Assembly: GCA_964359655.1 (NCBI GenBank)
Contig: CAYHVI010000001.1
Coordinates: 3,164-67,163, forward strand
Direction of reading: 5' to 3'
Origin: an uncultured Candidatus Saccharibacteria bacterium
GTDB taxonomy: Bacteria > Patescibacteriota > Minisyncoccia > Minisyncoccales > UBA10102
DNA length: 64,000 bases
Shown: piece after piece, positions 783-45,992 of the stretch
Layout of the letters: every line of letters starts with the position of its first letter
Position numbering within the stretch: the stretch's first letter is position 1
Translations under genes and position numbers: made by a program
The notes under the pieces: generated by a model
The model's database searches: none
What the model saw: the letters and a program-made list of their open reading frames with translations, nothing else
Told to the model about the DNA's origin: nothing

Positions 783-833
783 CAAAAAAAATTCGGGGGC
801 AAGAATATGTAAATCTCACCCCCTATTCTACGT
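783..833 (-). terminator. Weak candidate intrinsic terminator between convergent ddl and trpE-like genes
   Basis: GGGGG(795-799)…CCCCC(829-833) form a 5-bp stem with a long loop. An A8 run at 783-791 gives a U-tract on the minus strand. The stem overlaps the trpE-like stop codon. Confidence 0.25.
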
Positions 834-2305
834 TACATCTCAAGAAGAATTCTCTCGAGCTTAAAGCTCATTTCGGCCACGTCTATGGCGCGCATGAGGG
901 CGGAGGCCTTGTGAAGCGTCTCCTGGTACTCGGCGTCGGGCTGGCTGTCGAAGACGATGCCCCCGCCCGCCTGCACGTAGGCCACGCCGTCCTTCATGAC
1001 GAGTGTGCGTATCGTTATTGCAGTGTCCATGTTGCCGAAGAAGTCGAAGTAGCCGACCGCACCCGCGTATGGGCCGCGCTTGTGCGGCTCCATCTCGGCG
1101 ATTATCTCCATGGCACGGATTTTGGGCGCGCCGGACACCGTGCCCGCAGGGAAGCACGCCCTCAGCGCGTCGAAGTTGGTGCAGCCGTCCTTCAGCTTGC
1201 CGGTGACGTGGGAGACGAGGTGCATCACGTGGGAGTAGCGTTCAACGTCCATAAGCTGCGTGACATTGACCGTGCCCGGCTGGCTGACGCGGCCAATGTC
1301 GTTGCGGCCAAGGTCAACCAGCATGATGTGCTCGGCGCGCTCCTTCTCCTCGGTGCGCAGCTCGCGCTCCAACTCCTCATCCTCCTGGGGGGTAGCCCCT
1401 CTGCGGCGCGTACCCGCAATCGGGTGCGCCGCCACGTTGCCGTTCTCGACCTGCACGAGCATCTCAGGGGAAGCGCCCACTATCTGAAAGTCGTCGAGGT
1501 TCAGGTAGTACATATAGGGAGAGGGGTTGACCGTCCGCAGCGCGCGGTATATCTGGAACGGGTGCGCGCTGGTGCGGCGGGCAATCCGCTGGGACACCAC
1601 CGCCTGGATAATGTCTCCTTCATAGACGTACTTCTTGACCCGCCCGACCATGTCTTTGTACTGGTCTTTGCTCATGTTGGACTCCGTGCGAGTGGGCGGA
1701 GCGTAGTCTGACGAGCCGCTTGGCCCAGGCAGGCGCAGGGGTGATTCCAGGCGGCGAACAAGCTCGGCGATGCGCTCGACGGCCTCGTTGTAGGCGCGCG
1801 GCACGTCGCCGTTGAGCCTGGCGTGGCTGACGACGCGAATCCTGTGGCGCAGGTGGTCGAATATCAGGAAGGTGGTGGTCATCATGAACAGCGACTCTGG
1901 AAGTCCAAGCGGGTCTGCCGCTGGCGAAGGAAGGCGCTCGAAGTAGTTGACCGCCTCGTATGACAGGTATCCGACCGCGCCGCCATTGAACCGCTGGAGA
2001 TAGGACACAGGGGCTAGCTTGTGCCTGGATAGCGCGTTCTGAATGGGAATCAGGGGGTCAACCGCGCCGTCCTGCTGACCCGGCCCGGTCTTTATCAGGC
2101 TGTCGGGCTGGGTGCCGAGGAAGCTGTAGCGGGCGATGCGCTCGCCGCCTTCGACGCTTTCGAACAGGAATGAATACGGCGGGCGGGCGATTTTCAGGTA
2201 GGCCGTTACGGGCGTTTCCAGGTCGGCGTTTATCTCGCGGTACACGGGTACTAGGTTATACATACCTTGCATTTTCTTGAATTCCTCAAATGTTGGCTGA
2301 TACAC
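833..2305 (-). CDS. trpE: Anthranilate synthase component I / chorismate-binding enzyme (TrpE/PabB-like), GC-rich
   Basis: 490 aa with an N-terminal …YSFLFESVEGGERIARYSFLG… motif and a C-terminal chorismate-binding core (…GTVSGAPKIRAMEII…, …GGGIVFDS…). Local GC is far above the window average. No trpG/D/C/F/A/B genes are adjacent. Confidence 0.8.
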   Translation of the reverse strand: MYQPTFEEFKKMQGMYNLVPVYREINADLETPVTAYLKIARPPYSFLFESVEGGERIARYSFLGTQPDSLIKTGPGQQDGAVDPLIPIQNALSRHKLAPVSYLQRFNGGAVGYLSYEAVNYFERLPSPAADPLGLPESLFMMTTTFLIFDHLRHRIRVVSHARLNGDVPRAYNEAVERIAELVRRLESPLRLPGPSGSSDYAPPTRTESNMSKDQYKDMVGRVKKYVYEGDIIQAVVSQRIARRTSAHPFQIYRALRTVNPSPYMYYLNLDDFQIVGASPEMLVQVENGNVAAHPIAGTRRRGATPQEDEELERELRTEEKERAEHIMLVDLGRNDIGRVSQPGTVNVTQLMDVERYSHVMHLVSHVTGKLKDGCTNFDALRACFPAGTVSGAPKIRAMEIIAEMEPHKRGPYAGAVGYFDFFGNMDTAITIRTLVMKDGVAYVQAGGGIVFDSQPDAEYQETLHKASALMRAIDVAEMSFKLERILLEM

Positions 2306-27177: not shown

Positions 27178-27546
27178 GGGGATGTCTGTTTTGACAGCGA
27201 GATCAAGAAGTTCTTTGCGATGAGAGTATGGTCTCTTTTAAAACCAAAGCCCAGTTTGACTGGGCAGGCATACAACTGCCAACTTATTTGCCCCACAGCG
27301 GGCACTTGCTTACGCTTAATAAGCGCTAGGCCATTCGCTCTTTGACTCTCGATAAAAGAAGCGGGTGTCAACCATCGAGATAGATAGCTTTTTTGAAGGT
27401 CCGGAAGCTATTGATTTTAAGGACCATCAAAGAGAGAATGGTTTTGTCCAGTTCTCACATCCTCTCTTCAAATTAACTGGACTATCATCGTAGATGGAAT
27501 TTCTTAATCTCGCTGGACGAGGGCTCACTGCCCTCCATCTCCACCC
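27178..27546 (+). ncRNA. ssrA: tmRNA (ssrA)
   Basis: Starts GGGGAUG… 5 nt after the smpB stop. The 3' end is GGACGAGGGCUCACUGCCCUCCAUCUCCACC, with a 5-bp T-stem, 7-nt loop and 7-nt acceptor strand complementary to the 5' GGGGAUG. An internal frame …GCC AAC UUA UUU GCC CCA CAG CGG GCA CUU GCU UAC GCU UAA UAA gives tag …ANLFAPQRALAYA with a double stop. Confidence 0.8.
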
Positions 27547-35989: not shown

Positions 35990-37237
35990 TTAAAATAGAC
36001 TTTTTTGAGTAGTTACGGTTTGTTGTTCTCCTTCTCCAAAGATTTTAATTTTGCCGTATTCTCCATCGTATCCCGGCTCAATGTTCACTTTCCCCTCTCT
36101 TACTCTCATAATACCTTCTGCAATTTCTGGCAAGGTGGCTTCTCTCAACGCACTGGGTTCTGCGTCAAGGAGCACAGCGAACTCATTTCCAAGTTTTTGA
36201 ATAAGTGCTTCGTATTCTTGTTGAACTTGTTTGCTTGCCACTCCCAGCCCTAAGGCGTCAGCAATGATCTCTTGGAGTGGAATGAGACTCTTGAAGGGTA
36301 CCGCTCCTGACGGAACAAAATCTTCTGGTCTATCGGCGAGCTCTGCGACGCGATTGAGAACTCCAATAGTAAGGGGTCTTCCGCATTTGGGGCACATATT
36401 ATTGAGTTTCTTTGATTCTTCAGGAGCCAAACTTATCCCGCAAAGCCGATGGCCATCGTAATGATACTTTCCTTCCTCGGGGAAAAACTCAACAGTAAAT
36501 AAAAACTTGGTTGGATCTTTTTTCTTGATTGCATCTGCTATCGCAAAATAACTTACCTCGGCATCAAACACATTCGCCTCCCTCCCTATTTTTGGGAGAC
36601 TATGGCTATCAGAGTTGCTGATAATGGCGACTTTATCCAGTGCCGAAAGTCGCCAGTTCATTGCGGGATCTGAACTCAATCCCGTTTCAATTGCATAAAT
36701 ATATTTTGTGTATTCATCAAAGCATTCTTCCAACGAGTTGAATCCAGACTTGGACCCAAATACAGAAAACCACGGTGTCCACGCATGTGCCGGAACCACC
36801 ATACAGTCAGATGAGGCGTCGAGCGCGATTTTTACCACTTCTTTTGCATCGATGCCAATGATGGGTCTTCCGTCTGCTTTTAAATTCCCCTGCCAACCCA
36901 ATCTCGTATTGATTTTCTCAACAGCTTCCAGTAAAGGAGCGAAAACCAAAAGATGAACTCTTCTCCCCCGCCCGCCTTTTGTATAAATGCAGCTCAATTC
37001 AGTGGTCAGCAAAAATCTCGTGTCCAGGTTGCTTCCCTTGAGTTTATACAAGCCCTGCTCTGCGGGCTCGAGTTTTTCTTGCAGCTCTTTGAACCACAAA
37101 GGATGCGTGAAATCGCCTGGGCTTATTACTTTGATCCCTTTGATTTTTGCCCACTTGTCCAAATTTTCCAAGTTCATATCCTGCGACGTCGCCCTCGCAT
37201 ATTTTGAATGAATGTGAAAGTCACCAACGAAACGCAT
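35990..37237 (-). CDS. PHP-domain protein with a Cys zinc-finger (endonuclease Q-like, TIGR00375 family)
   Basis: MRFVGDFHIHSKYAR… PHP N-terminus and …CPKCGRPLT… zinc-ribbon. 415 aa. Confidence 0.5.
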   Translation of the reverse strand: MRFVGDFHIHSKYARATSQDMNLENLDKWAKIKGIKVISPGDFTHPLWFKELQEKLEPAEQGLYKLKGSNLDTRFLLTTELSCIYTKGGRGRRVHLLVFAPLLEAVEKINTRLGWQGNLKADGRPIIGIDAKEVVKIALDASSDCMVVPAHAWTPWFSVFGSKSGFNSLEECFDEYTKYIYAIETGLSSDPAMNWRLSALDKVAIISNSDSHSLPKIGREANVFDAEVSYFAIADAIKKKDPTKFLFTVEFFPEEGKYHYDGHRLCGISLAPEESKKLNNMCPKCGRPLTIGVLNRVAELADRPEDFVPSGAVPFKSLIPLQEIIADALGLGVASKQVQQEYEALIQKLGNEFAVLLDAEPSALREATLPEIAEGIMRVREGKVNIEPGYDGEYGKIKIFGEGEQQTVTTQKSLF

Positions 37238-37299
37238 ATTCTTTTCTTACCAAAAATCATTCACTCTCGCAACTGTGATAAGTATATACGAGCAAACAA

Positions 37300-37360
37300 A
37301 AAAGATTAAGGAGGTTCAGGATATTGTTGACACGCTGAACGCTTAATCTTTTTTCTTTGT
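37300..37360 (-). terminator. Bidirectional hairpin terminator flanked by A6/T6
   Basis: AAAAAAGATTAAG…(nested GTTCAG…CTGAAC)…CTTAATCTTTTTT. Confidence 0.45.
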
Positions 37361-37366
37361 GGGATA

Positions 37367-38074
37367 TCAGGGAGGGTGCGATAGAAGTTGTATGAACTGA
37401 TTTGCCAAGCGTATAAGAGCTTCTCTTCGATGGTGTTGTTCGTACCACCTTCGAGAGAGTTGTAGCTCTCGAGCTATCTGTGCAGTACTCCTGCCTTCGA
37501 TGAATCTCTCTATGAGGAGCTGAAGAACTGCACTGTCTGGCAGCATCTTCAGTTCTCCTATTACCCGCTGTGCAGACTCCAAAAGGAGCTGTCTGAGCGC
37601 GGTCGCCTCACTGATTCCTGATCGCATCCGCAACTCCCTGATTATTGGTAGACGTGCTAACCTACAATGCTGAAGCCAGTTTGGATCCTGGAGATGTCGG
37701 TAGAGTTCTATGACTTGATCTGGTGCGGGAAGTCGCTGCCCAGTCCCTTTTTGTTTTTTGGTAGGGCGCTCGATAGAACTACTGATTGAGTTAAACGAGC
37801 CTTCTGGATCTTCAAGATCAACTTTCATAAACTGCACTAGGCCGCGTCCTTCTGGAGTAATACACTGCAAGATCTTTGTTCCTCGTGGTTTATCAGGATA
37901 AGCTGGAACGAGTTTAATCAGTTGCGCCTGGAGCAGTTGTGCTCTGATGTTTTGTGCCCTACGTCTTGTTAACTTGAGCGCTTCATCTCGCTGGTGCAAA
38001 GAAAGCAAAGGACTCATTAAAATATGCACGAGATATCTGATAAGCTCAGGGGTGATACGAATAGACGGTTTCAT
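37367..38074 (-). CDS. Putative DNA-binding regulator of the GC-rich island
   Basis: wHTH-like segment (…LQAQLIKLV…KILQCITPEGRGL…) and a C-terminal sigma70-r4/LuxR-like HTH (…STAQIARELQLSRRWYEQ…). It is divergent from the B-C operon. Confidence 0.4.
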   Translation of the reverse strand: MKPSIRITPELIRYLVHILMSPLLSLHQRDEALKLTRRRAQNIRAQLLQAQLIKLVPAYPDKPRGTKILQCITPEGRGLVQFMKVDLEDPEGSFNSISSSIERPTKKQKGTGQRLPAPDQVIELYRHLQDPNWLQHCRLARLPIIRELRMRSGISEATALRQLLLESAQRVIGELKMLPDSAVLQLLIERFIEGRSTAQIARELQLSRRWYEQHHRREALIRLANQFIQLLSHPP

Positions 38075-38112
38075 GCTACACCTCGATTCTTGGCCGAATT
38101 GCGTGCTATTAA

Positions 38113-38150
38113 TATTCTAGAATAAAATAATAATCTTGTCAACATTGACA
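38113..38150. promoter_or_regulatory. Divergent promoter region with two perfect palindromes (TATTCTAGAATA; TGTCAAcaTTGACA)
   Basis: A 12-bp perfect palindrome at 38113-38124 and a 6+6 inverted repeat at 38137-38150. The latter also resembles paired -35 hexamers. Confidence 0.4.
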
Positions 38151-38232
38151 TAGCGAGTCATATATGCTACTAATGTCATAGTCCCCAGCACTTTAACAAT
38201 GTGCCATAACGCTGTTTTTAGGAGATAAACAG

Positions 38233-38988
38233 ATGCCAACACGCCAATTGTCGCCAACAGAGCGAGAGAACGTTAACAAGAACAGAGTGCAGTGGGCAGA
38301 GAAACTTGCTGCAGTTCTTCGAGAATGGTGCACAATTAATCAGTACATGCCTCGGAAACTACTGGCGCAAGAGCTGGGAATCCTCGACAACAACTGGAAA
38401 CATATTGTCGTTGGCGATGGTCTGACCGACGATATTTCGATCTACGCCCGCCTGCACGTCAGGACCGAGCTTGCTGAAGCTGATCCTCGAACAGTTCCTC
38501 CAAAGGCTCTGTATGCGCCCAGAGGGCTGTATTATTACGAAAGAGCATACGCGTGGACTGAACATGAATACACTTTATGGCTAAACCGTCATGGTTATTC
38601 GCTTCCCAGAGAGGTACAGACTTCTGTTCCGGTAACGGACGAACTCCCAGACATTAGGACGCTCTTCGAACAACTGCTACTCGACCCATTAGCGCAACGG
38701 ATTGTTCGGGCACTCGAACCTCGTCTTCTGAAAGCAATGGGATCTGCGATTGGTGACAAGCACCCTACTGCGCAGTCCGATGATGTCGGCGTTCTTGCCG
38801 ACAAGCTGTACAATGCTCTTGTGGCGTATGTCGAGGGAACCCCGGAAGAAAGGGATCAACTGATGGCAAAATATGGGAAAACCCATCTTGCAAGGGTGTA
38901 CTCACTTTTGCGGGATCTTAGTCTCCCGCCCGATGATCGAGAACAGGCGTTAAAAGTGAACCAAACCATTTCTGAAAGGAGTAGATAA
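38233..38988 (+). CDS. Hypothetical protein (251 aa), first gene of the island operon
   Basis: ORF only. Its stop is 2 nt before the GHKL-ATPase start. Confidence 0.4.
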   Translation: MPTRQLSPTERENVNKNRVQWAEKLAAVLREWCTINQYMPRKLLAQELGILDNNWKHIVVGDGLTDDISIYARLHVRTELAEADPRTVPPKALYAPRGLYYYERAYAWTEHEYTLWLNRHGYSLPREVQTSVPVTDELPDIRTLFEQLLLDPLAQRIVRALEPRLLKAMGSAIGDKHPTAQSDDVGVLADKLYNALVAYVEGTPEERDQLMAKYGKTHLARVYSLLRDLSLPPDDREQALKVNQTISERSR

Positions 38989-38989
38989 C

Positions 38990-40972
38990 ATGGTCACGCG
39001 AGATAGGATAGATTTCAACGGCGTATCCAGAATCAACACAGCCAAGGCCATTCTGCTGTTGGCCAGGGTGTATGCGCGGAATCCTGTTGAGATTCTCGCG
39101 CAATACATCGAGAACTCCATTGACGCCCGTGCAACCCAAGTGATCGTTGAGATGACACGAGATCGAATCGTCATCGCTGACAACGGGTCTGGTATGACCC
39201 CTTTCATTCTGCCAGACGATTTGACTGTCTTGCAGATGTACGCAGACGATGCCGCGCAAGGGAGACTTGATCCAGACTTCGACTTTCGCACTCTGATGAA
39301 CCCAGTCTCACTTCATAGTCTCCAGTGGATGAGAGAATGCATTGCCTTCTCTCCTAAGATTCCCGAGACGGGCACAATTGCAGGACAGCCACAACGCGGA
39401 ATGTTGGGTATCGGTATTGCGGCATTCCACCAGATCGCAAATCAAGCAGTCTGGCTTACGAGGCCGAACCTTGAGCTCGCACGGATGTATTGGGGCCCTC
39501 GCATAAACGCAGAGGACATCCCAGTCTTAAGGCTTGAGCCTCCTACGACCAAAATGCTCGACGGGATGAACTCGTCTTACCATATCGGCGAGACAGAAAA
39601 TCCCTTTGCTGATCCGTATGGTCGGAAACTTCAGTCAGGGACAATCATAGAGATTACATCTCTCACCCCTGGGCTGGACAAGGTTTTTCGGCCAGCTCTT
39701 CTTCAGCATCACTTCGCCAACCGCTTTGGTGAGGATACCAGAAGAGGAGTGAGCATTATCATCAGGGGGAGTCTCACGACTGACCCCACCCGAACTCCAC
39801 GCTTGCGCGAGGTAAGAGTGCAGCCCGTGATCCACCGAGGGATACCAGTGGTGGTAAAAACCACGATGTTTCTCGAGAATGGACAGTATCCTTTTGGGGT
39901 TGAGATCTACTACACCCCCTCTGGCCGTGGAGCAACAGGACTCAAACTACGGAGACTCGGGAGTGACGTCGCCCCGTTGACCGATCTTCCCCCGTTTCAA
40001 ACCCCTCCGTGGACCTTGCCATTATCAGGCTACGTGGAGTTTCCCAACACTCCGGAGGCTCCGTGGAATCCAGATAAAACCCTTCCAGTGGCCTCCAGGA
40101 TACTTCAGCAGTGGGAGGAAGTGATCCTGGCTCTTGCTCCTCAAATCGAGGACGTGGTTGAGCGAACCCAAAAGAGTGCAGAGGATGTACGTCTAAAGGA
40201 ATTTGCGAAGGAAGCAGAGGCTGCTACCGTAGAGGCAATCAGAAACCTCCCCATTTTCCAGAACTCATTGGGAGGCTTCCTGGCAGGCAAGAGAAGACAG
40301 GGAAAGGGTACTACCCCTCGTGTCGAAGATCGAGTAATCGTTTCTGTACGAGGAGAGTATAACCAAGGGATTCCTGGAATCTCCATTGAACTGTGCTCTG
40401 GAGTAAAGAATCCTCAACCCCTGGAGACACGCAAGACCGGCAAGAGTGGAGCAATCTCTTTTGGTCGGTTTGCTCCAGGAACCTACCTAGTTCGAGTAGT
40501 GGACTTACCAGAACACATGACCCTCCAGGATCCTGTAGACTTCAAGTTCAGACTCACTTCGGCAGAACCTGGAATTCGTGTAACATTCCGCGTGACCACT
40601 GGCGAGCAACCGCCAGAACAGACCAAGATACCCCCGGTAAGGATTGAGTTTGTCCCAGGTGATGATCCGGGTTTGTTATATAGAACTGACCGACTCCAGA
40701 CTTTTGGGGTAATTGAGGTCAACTCTACGGCCGACGGTGTTCGAGAGGCCTTAGCAGAAATGCTCGAGAGCAATGATTACGCTCGCCTCAATGCCATTAC
40801 TGCACAGATTGAGGCAGCGGCACTAACCGCTACTGTACTCAAGGGCGAGGTATCAGAACTCTTCCAGCAGGCGTGTCAGTTTGCTGTTCGACTCTACACC
40901 GAACTACTAAAAGCTGATACCCAAAGACAGCAAAAACTCCAGCAGCAACGCAGAAGGGCAAGACAGAGCTAA
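38990..40972 (+). CDS. GHKL-superfamily ATPase (HATPase_c, MORC/MutL-like Bergerat fold) with C-terminal carboxypeptidase-regulatory-like beta-sandwich
   Basis: N-box and G1 box in …ILAQYIENSIDARATQVIVEMTRDRIVIADNGSGMT…. The C-terminal segment …ISIELCSGVKNPQPLETRKTGKSGAISFGRFAPGTYLVRVV… fits the CarbopepD_reg-type pattern. Confidence 0.6.
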   Translation: MVTRDRIDFNGVSRINTAKAILLLARVYARNPVEILAQYIENSIDARATQVIVEMTRDRIVIADNGSGMTPFILPDDLTVLQMYADDAAQGRLDPDFDFRTLMNPVSLHSLQWMRECIAFSPKIPETGTIAGQPQRGMLGIGIAAFHQIANQAVWLTRPNLELARMYWGPRINAEDIPVLRLEPPTTKMLDGMNSSYHIGETENPFADPYGRKLQSGTIIEITSLTPGLDKVFRPALLQHHFANRFGEDTRRGVSIIIRGSLTTDPTRTPRLREVRVQPVIHRGIPVVVKTTMFLENGQYPFGVEIYYTPSGRGATGLKLRRLGSDVAPLTDLPPFQTPPWTLPLSGYVEFPNTPEAPWNPDKTLPVASRILQQWEEVILALAPQIEDVVERTQKSAEDVRLKEFAKEAEAATVEAIRNLPIFQNSLGGFLAGKRRQGKGTTPRVEDRVIVSVRGEYNQGIPGISIELCSGVKNPQPLETRKTGKSGAISFGRFAPGTYLVRVVDLPEHMTLQDPVDFKFRLTSAEPGIRVTFRVTTGEQPPEQTKIPPVRIEFVPGDDPGLLYRTDRLQTFGVIEVNSTADGVREALAEMLESNDYARLNAITAQIEAAALTATVLKGEVSELFQQACQFAVRLYTELLKADTQRQQKLQQQRRRARQS

Positions 40973-41009
40973 GGAATTCAACAACCCTTTGGACTCTGCA
41001 ACGCTAAGT

Positions 41010-41044
41010 AAGGATAGGGAGCTTCTCCCTATCCTTTTTTCTTT
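41010..41044 (+). terminator. Strong rho-independent terminator after the GHKL-ATPase gene
   Basis: AAGGATAGGGAG-ctt-CTCCCTATCCTT is a perfect 12-bp stem followed by TTTTTTCTTT. Confidence 0.75.
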
Positions 41045-41078
41045 GGATCTGTTGTACAATGTAAACTTCTAACGGGAT

Positions 41079-41861
41079 TCATAGAAAACTATATTGTCGA
41101 ATATTTTTTTCGTAATTGGGAATTTTGCAGAGCCACTCCTCGTTCGTCCATTCCCAGCGTTCTTTCAAGTCAAAGAAATGTTCCAAGTCGCGCTCATACC
41201 CCTTGAGCTCGCAAAACTCAATCTCCCCTTTCATGCCGCTCCATTGATGATTGCATACCTCGTTTCCTCCAACGATCCTTGCTCTTCCATATTTCTCTCG
41301 CATTCTTGCCAAACATCCTAAACATTCCTTGTATTGATCCACTCGCAAAATCCAGCGTTTCTTGCATACCCGTTCCCCCATTTGATTGTATGCATTCATA
41401 TAGGCAGCAGTTTGCAATCCATATTCTTTGGTCAAGGTTGTGCTCGTTTTCAAATCGATAATGCTTAACACTCCTTCAACCTCTGCGACAATATCAACAG
41501 TTCCTGCATACCCCCGTTCTAAATCCACAACTCTTCGCTCAATATCTTGAGCGGGATTGCTTACTCGGAAAGGATACTGCTCTCGCCACTTGCAGAATGT
41601 TTCAATACTCACTGCAATGCGCGCGTCAAACTGCGCCCTTTCGCCCTTGAGAATTTTCTCTACGGCTTCGTGGATCATTGTGCCCCACAAAGCTGCCTGT
41701 TGGAATCCAAACCGCCTTCCCAAAGGATCTGACTTTTTCAAAAAAGAAGACCCGCCTGCTAAAGCAGTAATGGATGTTACGCGAGGAAACCACACTCCAT
41801 CAATCTCATACCCAAATTTTTCTCTGAACAAATCTGCTGTCATTTTACACTGCAATTCCAA
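41079..41861 (-). CDS. Cas4/RecB-like PD-(D/E)xK nuclease with putative Fe-S cysteine cluster
   Basis: Nuclease motifs …[11 protein letters not shown]… (D, E), …IIDLKTS… (DxK) and …[10 protein letters not shown]… (QxxxY). One N-terminal Cys and a C-terminal Cys cluster (…VCKK…ECLGC…VCNH…) follow the Cas4/AddB arrangement. Confidence 0.55.
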
Positions 41862-42372
41862 AAAGTGTTTTTACTGCCCAACCCACTCCGTACGACACCA
41901 AAGCCGCTATCCCTCCTATGAGCAGTATTTCGAGTCCGCCCTCCAGAAAACTCCCTTTGGTAACGAGCCTGCGTGCCGCACCCACAGCGAAAAAAGAAAG
42001 TCCTGCCAACAGGCTGGATACAAAAAACTGTTGAGCGCCAAAAAAATTAAGCAAGTAGGGAACCAATGGAATAATCCCAGCCCCCACAAAGGCTATAAAT
42101 GTTACCAGTCCGTGCTCAAAAGGTTCTGTAAAGCCGGTCTCTTTCTTTGCCAAATCATGCTCTGTTCTGACGGCGAGGAAATTTGATGCTCCCATAGAAA
42201 ATCCATCAGCAAGCAGGTTTGCCAAGCCTAAAATAATAACCACTCCCGGAGAAAGGAGTGCGCCAGTGGCTCCTGCCACTACGGCAAAAGTTGTTACAAT
42301 GCCATCGTTCGCTCCATACACAAAATTTCCAATATACGTGCCGTCTCGAAACCTTCTCAAAAACGCGTTCAT
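41845..42372 (-). CDS. VIT1/CCC1-family (DUF125) iron/manganese transporter
   Basis: …[20 protein letters not shown]… signature and 4-5 TM helices. Confidence 0.65.
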
Positions 42373-43994: not shown

Positions 43995-45821
43995 TCATTG
44001 CGGAAAGAGAGTTGAAACCTCCTTTTCAGTAAATCCTGCTCTCGTGAGATCTCGAGCAAGGGAGTATCGGCTGTAGCCTCCAGCAGAAGCGGAGAGCATC
44101 AACGTCCGCCCACCTTTCTCGAAAATTTGGTGAGAAGATGCCTTTGCTCTAACTCTACGCCATCCCTGCTTCCGAACACTGCGTTCTAGCTCTTTATATC
44201 GAGGACTAGCCGGCAACCAGGAAACAGGAACCCGAGACTTGAATGCACCATCTCTGGATTGCTGGATCACTCTCGCTGTCTCTTCTTCAACTAACGGAAG
44301 GCCTGCATCTATACGCTTCCTCTTTCGAGGAACCGTTTGATGGGGTTTGGCTTTCGAAAGAGTTTCCTCCTGCTTCCCATCTTGGAGAATGAGCTTCGCA
44401 TGCTTAAGTGTTGATGCACGCTGAATTACAGTTCCGATTTCCTGTGGAGTTTTATCGGGAAACTGCCCCCAGAGGTGTATCCCGGTCCTTAGATATTCGG
44501 GCGCTAAACCACCACAGAGGAGCGCGTATATCTTTTCTGGATCGTTAGCCTGACATTGTTCGTGGATATACGCAATGAGATCGGTCCTGAGCGGCAACAG
44601 GCTTGCGGCCTGCAATTCCTCTAAAAGTTCAGGCAGCACTCCTTTTTGCGCCAGACTTCTTGCCTGGGCAAATGTTTCGGTGTATGGCATCAAAGCAACA
44701 CACGGCGCCATATCGCGAACTGGAACATTGTGGTGATACAGCCACGCTGCCTTACGGATACCATCCTGCTTCATTCCTTCCTCTCCCACTACCCTACTAA
44801 GCTCTAGGTGGTCTTGTGGAATCAGAAAGATTCCATACTTGATGCAAGAGAGCACAAACCCTTTCTGAAGTCGGTGTTCTTGTATCATTTGAGTCAGCTC
44901 TCCAAGCATCTCTAGGGTATAGAAACAGGTAGTAAACCCGCGTCCGAGATTGTAGGTAGCTTGATATCTCTCTCCCAAGTAAGCAAAGGGGTGGCCTATA
45001 TCTCCCGTGATGGTTGTTGATTCTCCCAATACTCGGCCGTCTCGATCCACCCAGCGATTTCTGATTGACTTGCAGTGCAGTTGATGAACTGCAAGCATGA
45101 TAGAATCTCGAAGCGCCATTACTGCATCTGCAATAACATTCCATTCTTTTTCGATCCGTTCTTCAGACCAAGAAATCCAACAGCAGCGTCCACGCTCAAG
45201 ACCGGCGATATACAGCATTGCATCGGCTGTTTTCTTTTTGGGAAGGATGCTGAAAGGCTGGGTGAAAGTGATGACATTTAATATCCTCACTATCACGCCG
45301 ATTCCTTGAGGAGATAATCCCTTAACCTTGAAACCACGGATAGCAGGATACCACAGGATTCTTTCGATCAGCAAACCCATGCGCGACATCCCGGTAGCCT
45401 CTCGAACATAGGCCAGTTGTTTTTCCAGGAGATTTGTCTGGATTCGCATCATCCCTATCCGCGCCGCTACTTGCCGATCCCACTGAAAGACAGGAATACC
45501 ACGTTTTCTTGGAGCTCTCTGCGGTTTCCTGTGCATTCGTCTCGTTCTGCCGCCAAGCGTCATAGTGAAGTCTGTGATACCTAGTTGTTCCATCTCATTT
45601 TGCGCATCCTGCCAAAATCCCTCAAGCGCCATCTGATAGGTTGCTGCGGTGATCCTGTGCTGACCGCAGATGACAGCCAGAGACAGGGGGAGGTTGAAAG
45701 AACCTTGCAGGCCAAGATTCTTATTCCAACCGCACCACACGAGGGACACCATGATGTATGCTTTCACGTAGTACCAGACAATTTTTATACGTGCTATGGA
45801 AAGAGCAGAACCTACCTTCAT
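43995..45821 (-). CDS. Large hypothetical protein (608 aa) with C-terminal HicA/YcfA-like domain, GC-rich, adjacent to tRNA-Arg
   Basis: The C-terminal ~60 aa (…KELERSVRKQGWRRVRAKASSHQIFEKGGRTLMLSASAGGYSRYSLARDLTRAGFTEKE…) fits the HicA pattern (Gw..vr.kGSHh.f…l..l.raG). I see no motifs in the remainder. GC is ~50%. Confidence 0.4.
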   Translation of the reverse strand: MKVGSALSIARIKIVWYYVKAYIMVSLVWCGWNKNLGLQGSFNLPLSLAVICGQHRITAATYQMALEGFWQDAQNEMEQLGITDFTMTLGGRTRRMHRKPQRAPRKRGIPVFQWDRQVAARIGMMRIQTNLLEKQLAYVREATGMSRMGLLIERILWYPAIRGFKVKGLSPQGIGVIVRILNVITFTQPFSILPKKKTADAMLYIAGLERGRCCWISWSEERIEKEWNVIADAVMALRDSIMLAVHQLHCKSIRNRWVDRDGRVLGESTTITGDIGHPFAYLGERYQATYNLGRGFTTCFYTLEMLGELTQMIQEHRLQKGFVLSCIKYGIFLIPQDHLELSRVVGEEGMKQDGIRKAAWLYHHNVPVRDMAPCVALMPYTETFAQARSLAQKGVLPELLEELQAASLLPLRTDLIAYIHEQCQANDPEKIYALLCGGLAPEYLRTGIHLWGQFPDKTPQEIGTVIQRASTLKHAKLILQDGKQEETLSKAKPHQTVPRKRKRIDAGLPLVEEETARVIQQSRDGAFKSRVPVSWLPASPRYKELERSVRKQGWRRVRAKASSHQIFEKGGRTLMLSASAGGYSRYSLARDLTRAGFTEKEVSTLFPQ

Positions 45822-45918
45822 CTTCCTCCTCCTTTAGTTTTCCAAGTATTTTGGTAGGAATAGCTATCTTTTTTATATAATATCCTAGAAATAATACAAA
45901 TCTCGTGCTCCTTTTATG

Positions 45919-45992
45919 TGTCCCCGGCGCGACTCGAACGCGCAATCTTTGGCTCCGGAGGCCAACGCTCTATCCAATTGAGCTACGGAGAC
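45919..45992 (-). tRNA. tRNA-Arg (anticodon CCG)
   Basis: Cloverleaf GTCTCCG-TAGCTCAATTGGATAGAGC-GTTGGCCTCCGGAGCCAAAG-ATTGC-GCGTTCGAGTCGCGC-CGGGGAC-A. The 7-bp acceptor stem has one G-U pair. The anticodon loop is CTCCGGA and the T-loop is TTCGAGT. CCA is not encoded. Confidence 0.85.

Follow-up and report, generated by a model that had tools for sequence, protein, structure and literature searches.

A three-gene insertion at the nuclease-EndoQ junction of a Patescibacteria contig carries a predicted MORC-like ATPase module

Prokaryotic MORC and paraMORC1-5 proteins are GHKL and S5-fold ATPases of restriction-modification-like systems (Iyer, Abhiman & Aravind 2008, PMC2292703); in defence, pairings of GHKL proteins with PD-(D/E)xK nucleases are known from the Shedu protein VcSduA (PMC12137116) and from paraMORC3 (PMC2292703), and MORC, SMCHD1 and MutL are dimers whose ATP-closed N-terminal gates clamp DNA (PMC2292703). 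In this work a 64,000-nucleotide stretch of contig CAYHVI010000001.1 (the window) was analysed, and a block of three genes within it, two of which (designated A and B) recur together in other genomes, was compared with these systems; gene B is predicted to encode a MORC-like GHKL ATPase. The contig belongs to an ultra-small bacterium of the Patescibacteria (candidate phyla radiation, CPR) and was recovered from the 0.1 µm filter fraction of Hainich groundwater. Patescibacteria account for a large, mostly uncultured share of bacterial diversity, and to our knowledge few defence or chromatin-type systems have been recognised in them; a search of the literature returned no paper on GHKL proteins in this group.

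Insertion at the nuclease-EndoQ overlap

The block lies between the start codon of an EndoQ homologue (37235-37237, minus strand) and the stop codon of a RecB-type exonuclease (41079-41081), and contains three genes, which encode a putative regulator of 235 amino acids (aa), protein A (251 aa) and protein B (660 aa); see Table 1 for all coordinates. In three related contigs (L007, L008 and L009), the nucleases of which are 76-79% identical to that of the window, the gene order is VIT, nuclease, EndoQ, and the nuclease stop codon overlaps the EndoQ start codon as ATGA. The remaining neighbourhood (AsnC, GreA, asparaginase, Pol X, acylphosphatase and a permease) is common to the window and all three contigs. 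When the junctions were aligned, homology between the window and its relatives was found to stop at ...GCATA (37235-37239) and to restart at TTCATA... (41078-41083). Because homology breaks and resumes around the overlapping stop and start codons, the segment between them was read as having been inserted between two translationally coupled genes. The same arrangement, with both junctions, was present in three independent assemblies (L001-L003; ERZ1292627, ERZ1292623 and Logan ERR3858114), and the window arrangement is therefore not an assembly chimera. The 3.8-kb segment is an acquired insertion, in this lineage, exactly at the overlap of the host nuclease stop and EndoQ start codons, for which the synteny break provides solid evidence. 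A preliminary description of the window had taken the block for a real insertion, and the synteny of the relatives supports this.

The sequence 'CATA' was found at both ends of the insert (a 4-bp repeat). The ATG that overlaps the nuclease stop codon in the relatives is still present at the right junction, and the adjoining bases resemble the 5' end of the L008 EndoQ gene at a level attained by only 0.35% of the 21-mers of the window; this similarity, of 21-25 bp, is suggestive of a decayed target duplication. In a more distant relative another open reading frame (ORF), of 119 aa, occupies the same nuclease-EndoQ junction, and in a still more distant one the nuclease gene stands by itself amid housekeeping genes.

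The composition of the block was also examined. The preliminary description had proposed an island of about 4.6 kb with a shifted guanine-plus-cytosine (GC) content; GC is indeed raised in the three inserted genes (0.475 for the 235-aa gene, 0.501 for A and 0.521 for B), but the nuclease gene, which had been counted as part of the island, has a GC of 0.444, close to the 0.448 of the whole window. In the k-mer analysis that had been proposed as a check, no other 2.8-kb stretch of the 64 kb was as deviant by tetranucleotide distance as that of A and B (0.032; median 0.016, 95th percentile 0.025). The insert thus has the two marks of a genomic island, absence from syntenic relatives and deviant composition.

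Such deviation, together with the possible target duplication, a second variable slot nearby beside a tRNA-Arg gene, and a match of the 235-aa protein to phrog_248 'transcriptional activator' (E 1.2e-6) and, weakly, to ArpU, would accord with the insert being the remnant of a prophage or integrative element, with A-B as cargo (e.g. for maintenance or counter-defence) driven by a phage-type activator. We regard this as improbable. ORF and profile annotation of the insert revealed neither phage structural genes nor an integrase or transposase, and the tRNA-Arg gene, which might have marked an attachment site, is 4.8 kb away, past host genes. There were no relatives of A, B or the regulator among 2.9 M viral contigs, 50,697 phages and 72,556 plasmids (IMG/VR, INPHARED, PLSDB), a fold search of BFVD returned generic GHKL proteins only, and the loci elsewhere that carry A and B with a third gene, C, are without element hallmarks.

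Gene B, its partners and their occurrence

Protein B was found to have the motifs of the GHKL superfamily, namely the N-box (ExxxNxxDA), G1 (DxGxG), G2 (GxxGxG) and the 'GT' of G3, followed by an S5-fold transducer with which they form one ATPase module. The HATPase_c_3 profile matched B with 31.2 bits (cutoff 25) and matched 60 of the 72 family members that were aligned, and an SdrD_B/SpaA-like beta-sandwich was matched at aa 457-533, so that the N-box, G1 box and C-terminal beta-sandwich of the preliminary description were all borne out. Across the 72-member alignment N42, G66, G68, G142, G217 and K363 are invariant, and D45, M69, G137, G140 and T218 nearly so. The label MORC-like refers to the GHKL and S5 module, and not to a MORC-family sequence signature (Iyer et al. 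2008).

When B was modelled with AlphaFold2 from the 72-sequence alignment, a pLDDT of 93 and a pTM of 0.80 were obtained (an alignment of 4 sequences gave a pLDDT of 53). In the tabulated fold comparison of this model the highest values were those of MORC3 (23.7, over 290 residues at 3.3 Å), the SMCHD1 ATPase module (23.5) and MORC2 (21.2), followed by MutL (20.2), TRAP1 (19.8) and ParE (18.9); for residues 449-536, CnaB/transthyretin-like domains gave 9-11. Foldseek likewise matched B to Hsp90, MutL and MORC3. On the strength of this model B is predicted to be a complete GHKL and transducer ATPase of the MORC type and, given that full architecture, it is neither a degenerate histidine kinase nor a MutL fragment, the two objections that had been foreseen for it.

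In MutL, E29 is the catalytic base. The aligned residue of B is Q38, four positions before the N-box asparagine, and this position is occupied by E in 41 of the 72 family members and by Q in 29. From its conserved motifs the B protein of the window is expected to bind ATP; hydrolysis is doubtful.

An exhaustive profile search for B among 1.84 billion representatives gave 117 matches at E<=1e-30. Among the best 150 matches, 99 were of the family type (single-stretch, <=700 aa, some of them fragments), and the other 51 were giant adhesin-like proteins matched through the beta-sandwich only. Together they define a real, hitherto unannotated family comprising about 100 clusters. An earlier impression that B was an orphan, gained from a word-index search which gave 3 relatives of B and none of A, was overturned by this search.

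Genome and metagenome scans with an 11-sequence subset of the B alignment, along with contig look-ups, yielded about ten independent loci. Gene A is directly upstream of B in all 7 loci for which upstream sequence was available (L004, L011/L018, L012, L013, L014, L019 and the window), as had been proposed for the 251-aa protein and the ATPase; in the window a single base separates the two genes. A third gene, C, is directly downstream of B in 8 of the 10 independent loci with downstream sequence, and was not found in that position in L014 or in the window. An ORF downstream of B in L014 was considered as gene C and rejected, and neither the 235-aa protein nor a nearby 608-aa ORF of the window is a displaced C (hhalign probability 0.2-0.3, no BLAST similarity).

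The hosts are Wildermuthbacteria, Levybacteria, Microgenomates and other Patescibacteria, together with 2 metagenome-assembled genomes labelled Proteobacteria, and the flanking genes differ at every locus (rplU, recR-dnaB, rpoB-rpoC, rpmE-prfA / rpsB-tsf). In about 10 loci besides the window no recognisable nuclease, helicase, methylase, integrase or defence gene is linked to A-B. The preliminary description had made the co-occurrence of all four of its genes a condition of its defence module; this was not seen elsewhere, as the regulator and nuclease genes are unlinked to A-B at the other loci and only A-B(-C) is conserved. A-B is the core of an undescribed Patescibacteria module, usually in the form A-B-C, at unrelated chromosomal sites.

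GC was higher in the module than in its flanks by 5.6-9.4 points in 6 of 6 loci examined, and GC at third codon positions (GC3) was higher by 5-15 points. Since the module exceeds its flanks in every host, the GC shift alone is weak proof of recent arrival; that a high GC travels with the module at every site would be explained by repeated transfers out of a pool richer in GC, or may in part reflect amino-acid composition.

Protein A consists of a conserved N-terminal domain of ~95 aa (W21, W32, N36, Y38, W55 and an 'ADPRTVP' motif) and a C-terminal helical region, and had no match in Pfam, NCBIfam, PADLOC, PHROG or the PDB. In L013 (6664-7890) the A homologue is a protein of 408 aa with a tandem duplicate of the N-terminal domain, which for this reason appears to behave as an independent unit. 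In protein C (~230-290 aa) an N-terminal coiled coil is joined by a basic linker to a C-terminal domain, in which a 'TLE.AL...G..W' motif occurs. Profile searches of A and C against the PDB gave insignificant matches only (RXR helical, E 0.11; for C, the Cdt1 C-terminal winged-helix region, E 0.15). The Cdt1 match, to the C-terminal domain of C (L004, L006, L010-L013, L019), is noted as a lead only.

Searches of Pfam, PADLOC and PHROG were negative for A and C and gave sporadic generic GHKL matches for B. In PADLOC-DB v2.0.0 the 235-aa protein, A and C were without matches other than a generic coiled-coil, and B had a generic N-box match to REase_II (E 1.7e-3), with a match of any kind in 6 of the 72 family members. 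That no named system matches these genes, as first described, holds for PADLOC, Pfam and NCBIfam.

The neighbouring nuclease, regulatory elements and other features

The four ORFs of the preliminary description all exist, the nuclease ORF as called being 41079-41861(-). An ATG giving a protein of 254 aa is its probable real start according to homologues and gene calls, and this length is preferred to the 260 aa first given. The nuclease matched PDDEXK_1 with 29.5 bits (cutoff 22). Residues E102, D117, D130-L-K132 and Q144xxxY148 are invariant in 29 homologues, as is a GxxxHE motif; the E, D, (D/E)xK and QxxxY motifs of RecB-type PD-(D/E)xK exonucleases are thus present, and the catalytic residues that had been read from the sequence proved intact on alignment.

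The proposal that all four genes form a defence module, in which the ATPase controls a Cas4-like Fe-S nuclease, draws on these intact residues, on the adjacent and convergent position of the genes and on the known pairings of GHKL with PD-(D/E)xK proteins (PMC12137116, PMC2292703), and it is very unlikely to be correct. The nuclease has >129 homologues, at identities that grade from 83% down to 35%, and all the named ones are from Patescibacteria, compared to 3 word-index homologues for B; in relatives it is coupled to EndoQ without A or B, and in about 10 other loci no nuclease lies beside A-B. Its resemblance to Cas4 also failed in detail. It scored 20.1 bits against a TIGR00372 cutoff of 65, and in place of the four cysteines of the Cas4 Fe-S site (one N-terminal Cys and a C-terminal CxxCx5C), read in the preliminary description as a 1+3 pattern, the 29 homologues have no conserved N-terminal Cys and share the metal ligands C174-x2-C177...C197-x-H199. 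Its neighbours are VIT and EndoQ, with no cas genes, and no CRISPR-like repeats were found in the 64-kb window, in agreement with the first reading that no array is nearby. Its closest solved relative is MGME1 (E 3.9e-9), and it matched the phage exonuclease phrog_298 (E 3.5e-25).

As it is coupled to EndoQ in relatives, has the GC of the host, resembles MGME1 and lacks the Cas4 cysteine signature, the nuclease is a host gene and not a member of the module; from sequence it is predicted to be a vertically inherited Patescibacteria repair gene, separate from A-B. The argument for defence from 'GHKL plus nuclease' falls with it, because the conserved module A-B(-C) has no nuclease. The four-gene defence module is in effect refuted by synteny, and defence becomes one unproven possibility among others. 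A stand-alone 'Cas4-like' gene beside an ATPase is easily over-read as defence, and the correction is of practical use.

The left-flank protein matches Pyrococcus furiosus EndoQ (5zb8, 7k30) over its full length (E 5.4e-56 with 5zb8, aa 4-399), and MJ0043_C was recorded for it in the gene calls. In L007, L008, L009 and L031 the MGME1-like exonuclease is translationally coupled to EndoQ (VIT-nuclease-EndoQ); the stop and start codons overlap in L007, L008 and L009. This coupling suggests a repair pair of EndoQ nicking and exonuclease action, and an EndoQ-associated repair exonuclease is the simplest reading of the nuclease; the pairing would give a testable EndoQ and exonuclease repair pathway in these bacteria. 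The literature search returned no paper mentioning EndoQ together with Cas4. The EndoQ homologue of L007 (6623-9163) has 846 aa and matches to intein-splicing and LAGLIDADG domains, and is read as an intein-containing EndoQ.

The 235-aa protein had been described as a regulator with two helix-turn-helix (HTH) motifs; one HTH (aa 185-217) is weakly supported, with HTH_23, Sigma70_r4 and ArpU matches all below their cutoffs, and the second is unsupported. It had no homologue in L004-L019 and no relatives in viral contigs, phages or the PDB, and on these searches it appears confined to this island and does not accompany A-B at other loci.

The two promoter palindromes of the preliminary description are present and coincide with the minus-strand promoter of the 235-aa gene (TTGACA-17-TAGAAT, 11/12 in a promoter scan): TATTCTAGAATA (38113-38124) encloses its -10 box TAGAAT, and TGTCAAcaTTGACA (38137-38150) encloses its -35 box along with a second TTGACA, on the plus strand, which faces the A-B operon. 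The pattern GYACYTTRAHAAY occurs once in the window (0.11 expected), and it lies 35-51 nt upstream of gene A, once per locus, in 5 lineages including the window (L011 and L018 being one lineage) and nowhere else in 32 loci, counted in the same sequences from which the pattern was derived. We regard it as a candidate for an operator or promoter element that serves the module.

Strong terminators had also been described. Downstream of A-B a 12-bp stem (41010-41036) with a T-tract was confirmed by a terminator scan, and the 18-nt inverted repeat downstream of the 235-aa gene is present. The hairpin it forms was not scored in the scan, which is G+C-based, and from its sequence it could be terminator-like in both directions. 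A perfect 12-nt direct repeat, CTTTTTTCTTTG, at 37348-37359 and 41034-41045 forms the tails of both hairpins and brackets the three inserted genes. It was considered as a trace of insertion and set aside as indistinguishable from chance (~0.5 expected in 4.3 kb, both copies being T-rich terminator tails).

Table 1. Features of the insert and its flanks in the window, with corresponding elements in other loci.
Feature	Position	Strand	Remarks
Inserted block	37238..41078		3841 bp; missing in syntenic relatives; splits EndoQ from nuclease
Gene A, 251 aa, upstream partner of B	38233..38988	+	No family match
Gene B, 660 aa, predicted MORC/SMCHD1-like GHKL ATPase	38990..40972	+	
B: Bergerat fold	aa 1-232 (approximate)		
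B: S5-like transducer	aa 233-380 (approximate)		Invariant K363
B: long helix	aa 383-419 (approximate)		
B: transthyretin/CnaB-like beta-sandwich	aa 449-536 (approximate)		
B: small alpha/beta domain	aa 551-594 (approximate)		
B: helical tail	aa 598-659 (approximate)		
Putative transcription activator, 235 aa	37367..38074	-	C-terminal sigma-70 region-4/ArpU-like HTH
Divergent promoter/operator region	38113..38150		Two palindromes and promoter boxes
13-nt motif GCACTTTAACAAT (pattern GYACYTTRAHAAY)	38188..38200	+	45 nt upstream of gene A
Pattern GYACYTTRAHAAY in other loci	L004 302-314; L011 304-316; L014 7094-7106; L019 5165-5177		
AT-rich compound hairpin	37293..37359		Downstream of 235-aa gene; A-/T-tracts on its sides; inverted repeat I1, 18-nt arms, 94% complementary
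Intrinsic terminator of A-B operon	41010..41045	+	12-bp stem, 6 G-C pairs, T-tract
Possible decayed duplicate of first EndoQ codons	41059..41078	-	Right junction; 12/21 identity to L008 EndoQ 5' end
EndoQ homologue, 415 aa	35990..37237	-	Flank, outside module
MGME1-like RecB-type PD-(D/E)xK exonuclease, 254 aa	41079..41843	-	Flank, outside module
Gene C in other loci	L004, L005, L006, L010, L011/L018, L012, L013, L019		Directly downstream of B

Three further features of the window were recorded. A 490-aa chorismate-binding enzyme is encoded at 833-2305(-) (Chorismate_bind, E 1.9e-97, and Anth_synt_I_N); with a GC of 0.615 and a GC3 of 0.80 in a genome of GC 0.45, and with a tetranucleotide deviation second only to that of A and B in the window, its gene appears to have been transferred recently from a donor of high GC. 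The 608-aa ORF at 43995-45821(-) has a GC of 0.49 and no family match except a faint HicA-like C-terminus. It adjoins tRNA-Arg(CCG) at 45918-45992(-), and the same slot holds AAA_14/DUF4143 and HD genes in L007 and a reverse transcriptase in L008; from its gene content this slot appears to be a second variable hot spot. A tmRNA gene at 27178-27546(+) was found with Rfam (96 bits) and was not reported by ARAGORN.

A possible clamp function and comparison with described systems

Our best guess is that this is a mobile accessory module, possibly one of defence, which supplies a DNA clamp driven by ATP. By analogy with other GHKL and transducer ATPases, B would most likely be a dimer held by its C-terminal helices, the N-terminal gates of which (N42, the G1-G3 boxes and K363) would close on ATP binding and clamp a substrate; as for MORC, SMCHD1 and MutL, this substrate would probably be DNA. 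Protein A may be a targeting or adaptor subunit, and perhaps an autoregulator acting through the conserved 13-nt motif, and C, where present, may be a second DNA-binding or scaffold subunit. Because Gln replaces the catalytic Glu in the B protein of the window, as in 40% of the family, hydrolysis is probably slow, which would result in a long-lived clamp.

The patchy, site-variable distribution of the module and its compositionally foreign character point to an accessory role of the conflict or defence type (e.g. the trapping or silencing of invading DNA) over a core function, a role which is unproven; in our judgement the case for defence is made by patchy distribution and composition only. 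With no visible effector, the module may act by silencing or trapping or may have a non-defence role. A specific form of the former, that A-B(-C) is a nuclease-free system against mobile elements in which A loads a slow-hydrolysing B clamp onto invading or specific DNA, trapping or compacting and so silencing it, is speculative and considered improbable; if true, it would be a prokaryotic counterpart, and possibly an antecedent, of eukaryotic MORC-type silencing.

A number of observations weigh against an active, DNA-directed accessory clamp. The absence of C from the window copy may mean that this copy is incomplete or in decay; with Q38 as its catalytic-base residue the ATPase may be inactive; an HTH was assigned to A by sequence pattern only, with no HTH profile match; and GC is raised at first and second codon positions too, so that the GC elevation may partly be a matter of amino-acid composition. 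Foldseek places full-length Hsp90/TRAP1 first, which makes a chaperone-like, protein-directed role possible. Elsewhere the neighbours of the module are housekeeping genes of translation, replication and transcription, with no known defence or mobility gene among them. These last two observations, together with the absence of an effector domain and the position of the window copy inside a DNA-repair operon, would also be accounted for if A-B(-C) were lineage-specific housekeeping, either a MutL/SMCHD1-like clamp for chromosome organisation or repair, or a chaperone like Hsp90, brought to its position by ordinary rearrangement. This alternative is rather unlikely, since the module is missing at the same locus in the closest relatives, occupies a different genomic site at each locus with a GC3 above that of the host everywhere, and has the scattered hosts and the 99 family-type matches among the best 150 reported above. 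An insertion of three genes carrying the A-B(-C) module, with B as a clamp in an accessory conflict- or defence-type role, is therefore preferred as an explanation of the whole, with a confidence somewhat above even.

B has the GHKL and S5 engine of the prokaryotic MORC and paraMORC proteins, and differs from them in its C-terminal extension (a transthyretin/CnaB-like sandwich and a helical tail) and in its hosts, which are essentially Patescibacteria. Neither in the insert nor in about 10 further loci is A-B linked to the operon partners of MORC and paraMORC (an SFII helicase, a restriction-fold or HNH nuclease, TIR, a methylase); B has A and C as partners instead. As a MORC-like family with two uncharacterised partners and no nuclease, it extends the prokaryotic MORC/paraMORC repertoire, and A-B(-C), being small and tractable, is suited to asking what a GHKL clamp can do when no effector is linked to it.

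The other described relatives are further removed. MutL family models gave B 26 bits, compared to cutoffs of 180-937, and B is without the MutL C-terminal endonuclease domain; relative to the MutL N-terminal ATPase (LN40), the window protein has Gln in place of E29. The middle and C-terminal domains of Hsp90/TRAP1 are likewise absent from B. The nuclease beside the insert shares the GxxxHE, E, D, DxK and QxxxY motifs with the Cas4/RecB family and MGME1, but differs from Cas4 in its CxxC...CxH site, its sub-cutoff score, its lack of cas genes or CRISPR and its coupling to EndoQ in this lineage. VcSduA (Shedu type I-D; PMC12137116) and Mza (MzaB) resemble A-B in that a GHKL module is carried by an accessory, horizontally moving locus; their nuclease, however, is fused or a conserved operon partner, whereas A-B has no linked nuclease, and the PADLOC MzaB profile matched 1 of the 72 B family members (E 9e-4). 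Of known kinds the prokaryotic MORC/paraMORC radiation is closest to the A-B family, to which VcSduA and other GHKL-nuclease defence proteins are related as well.

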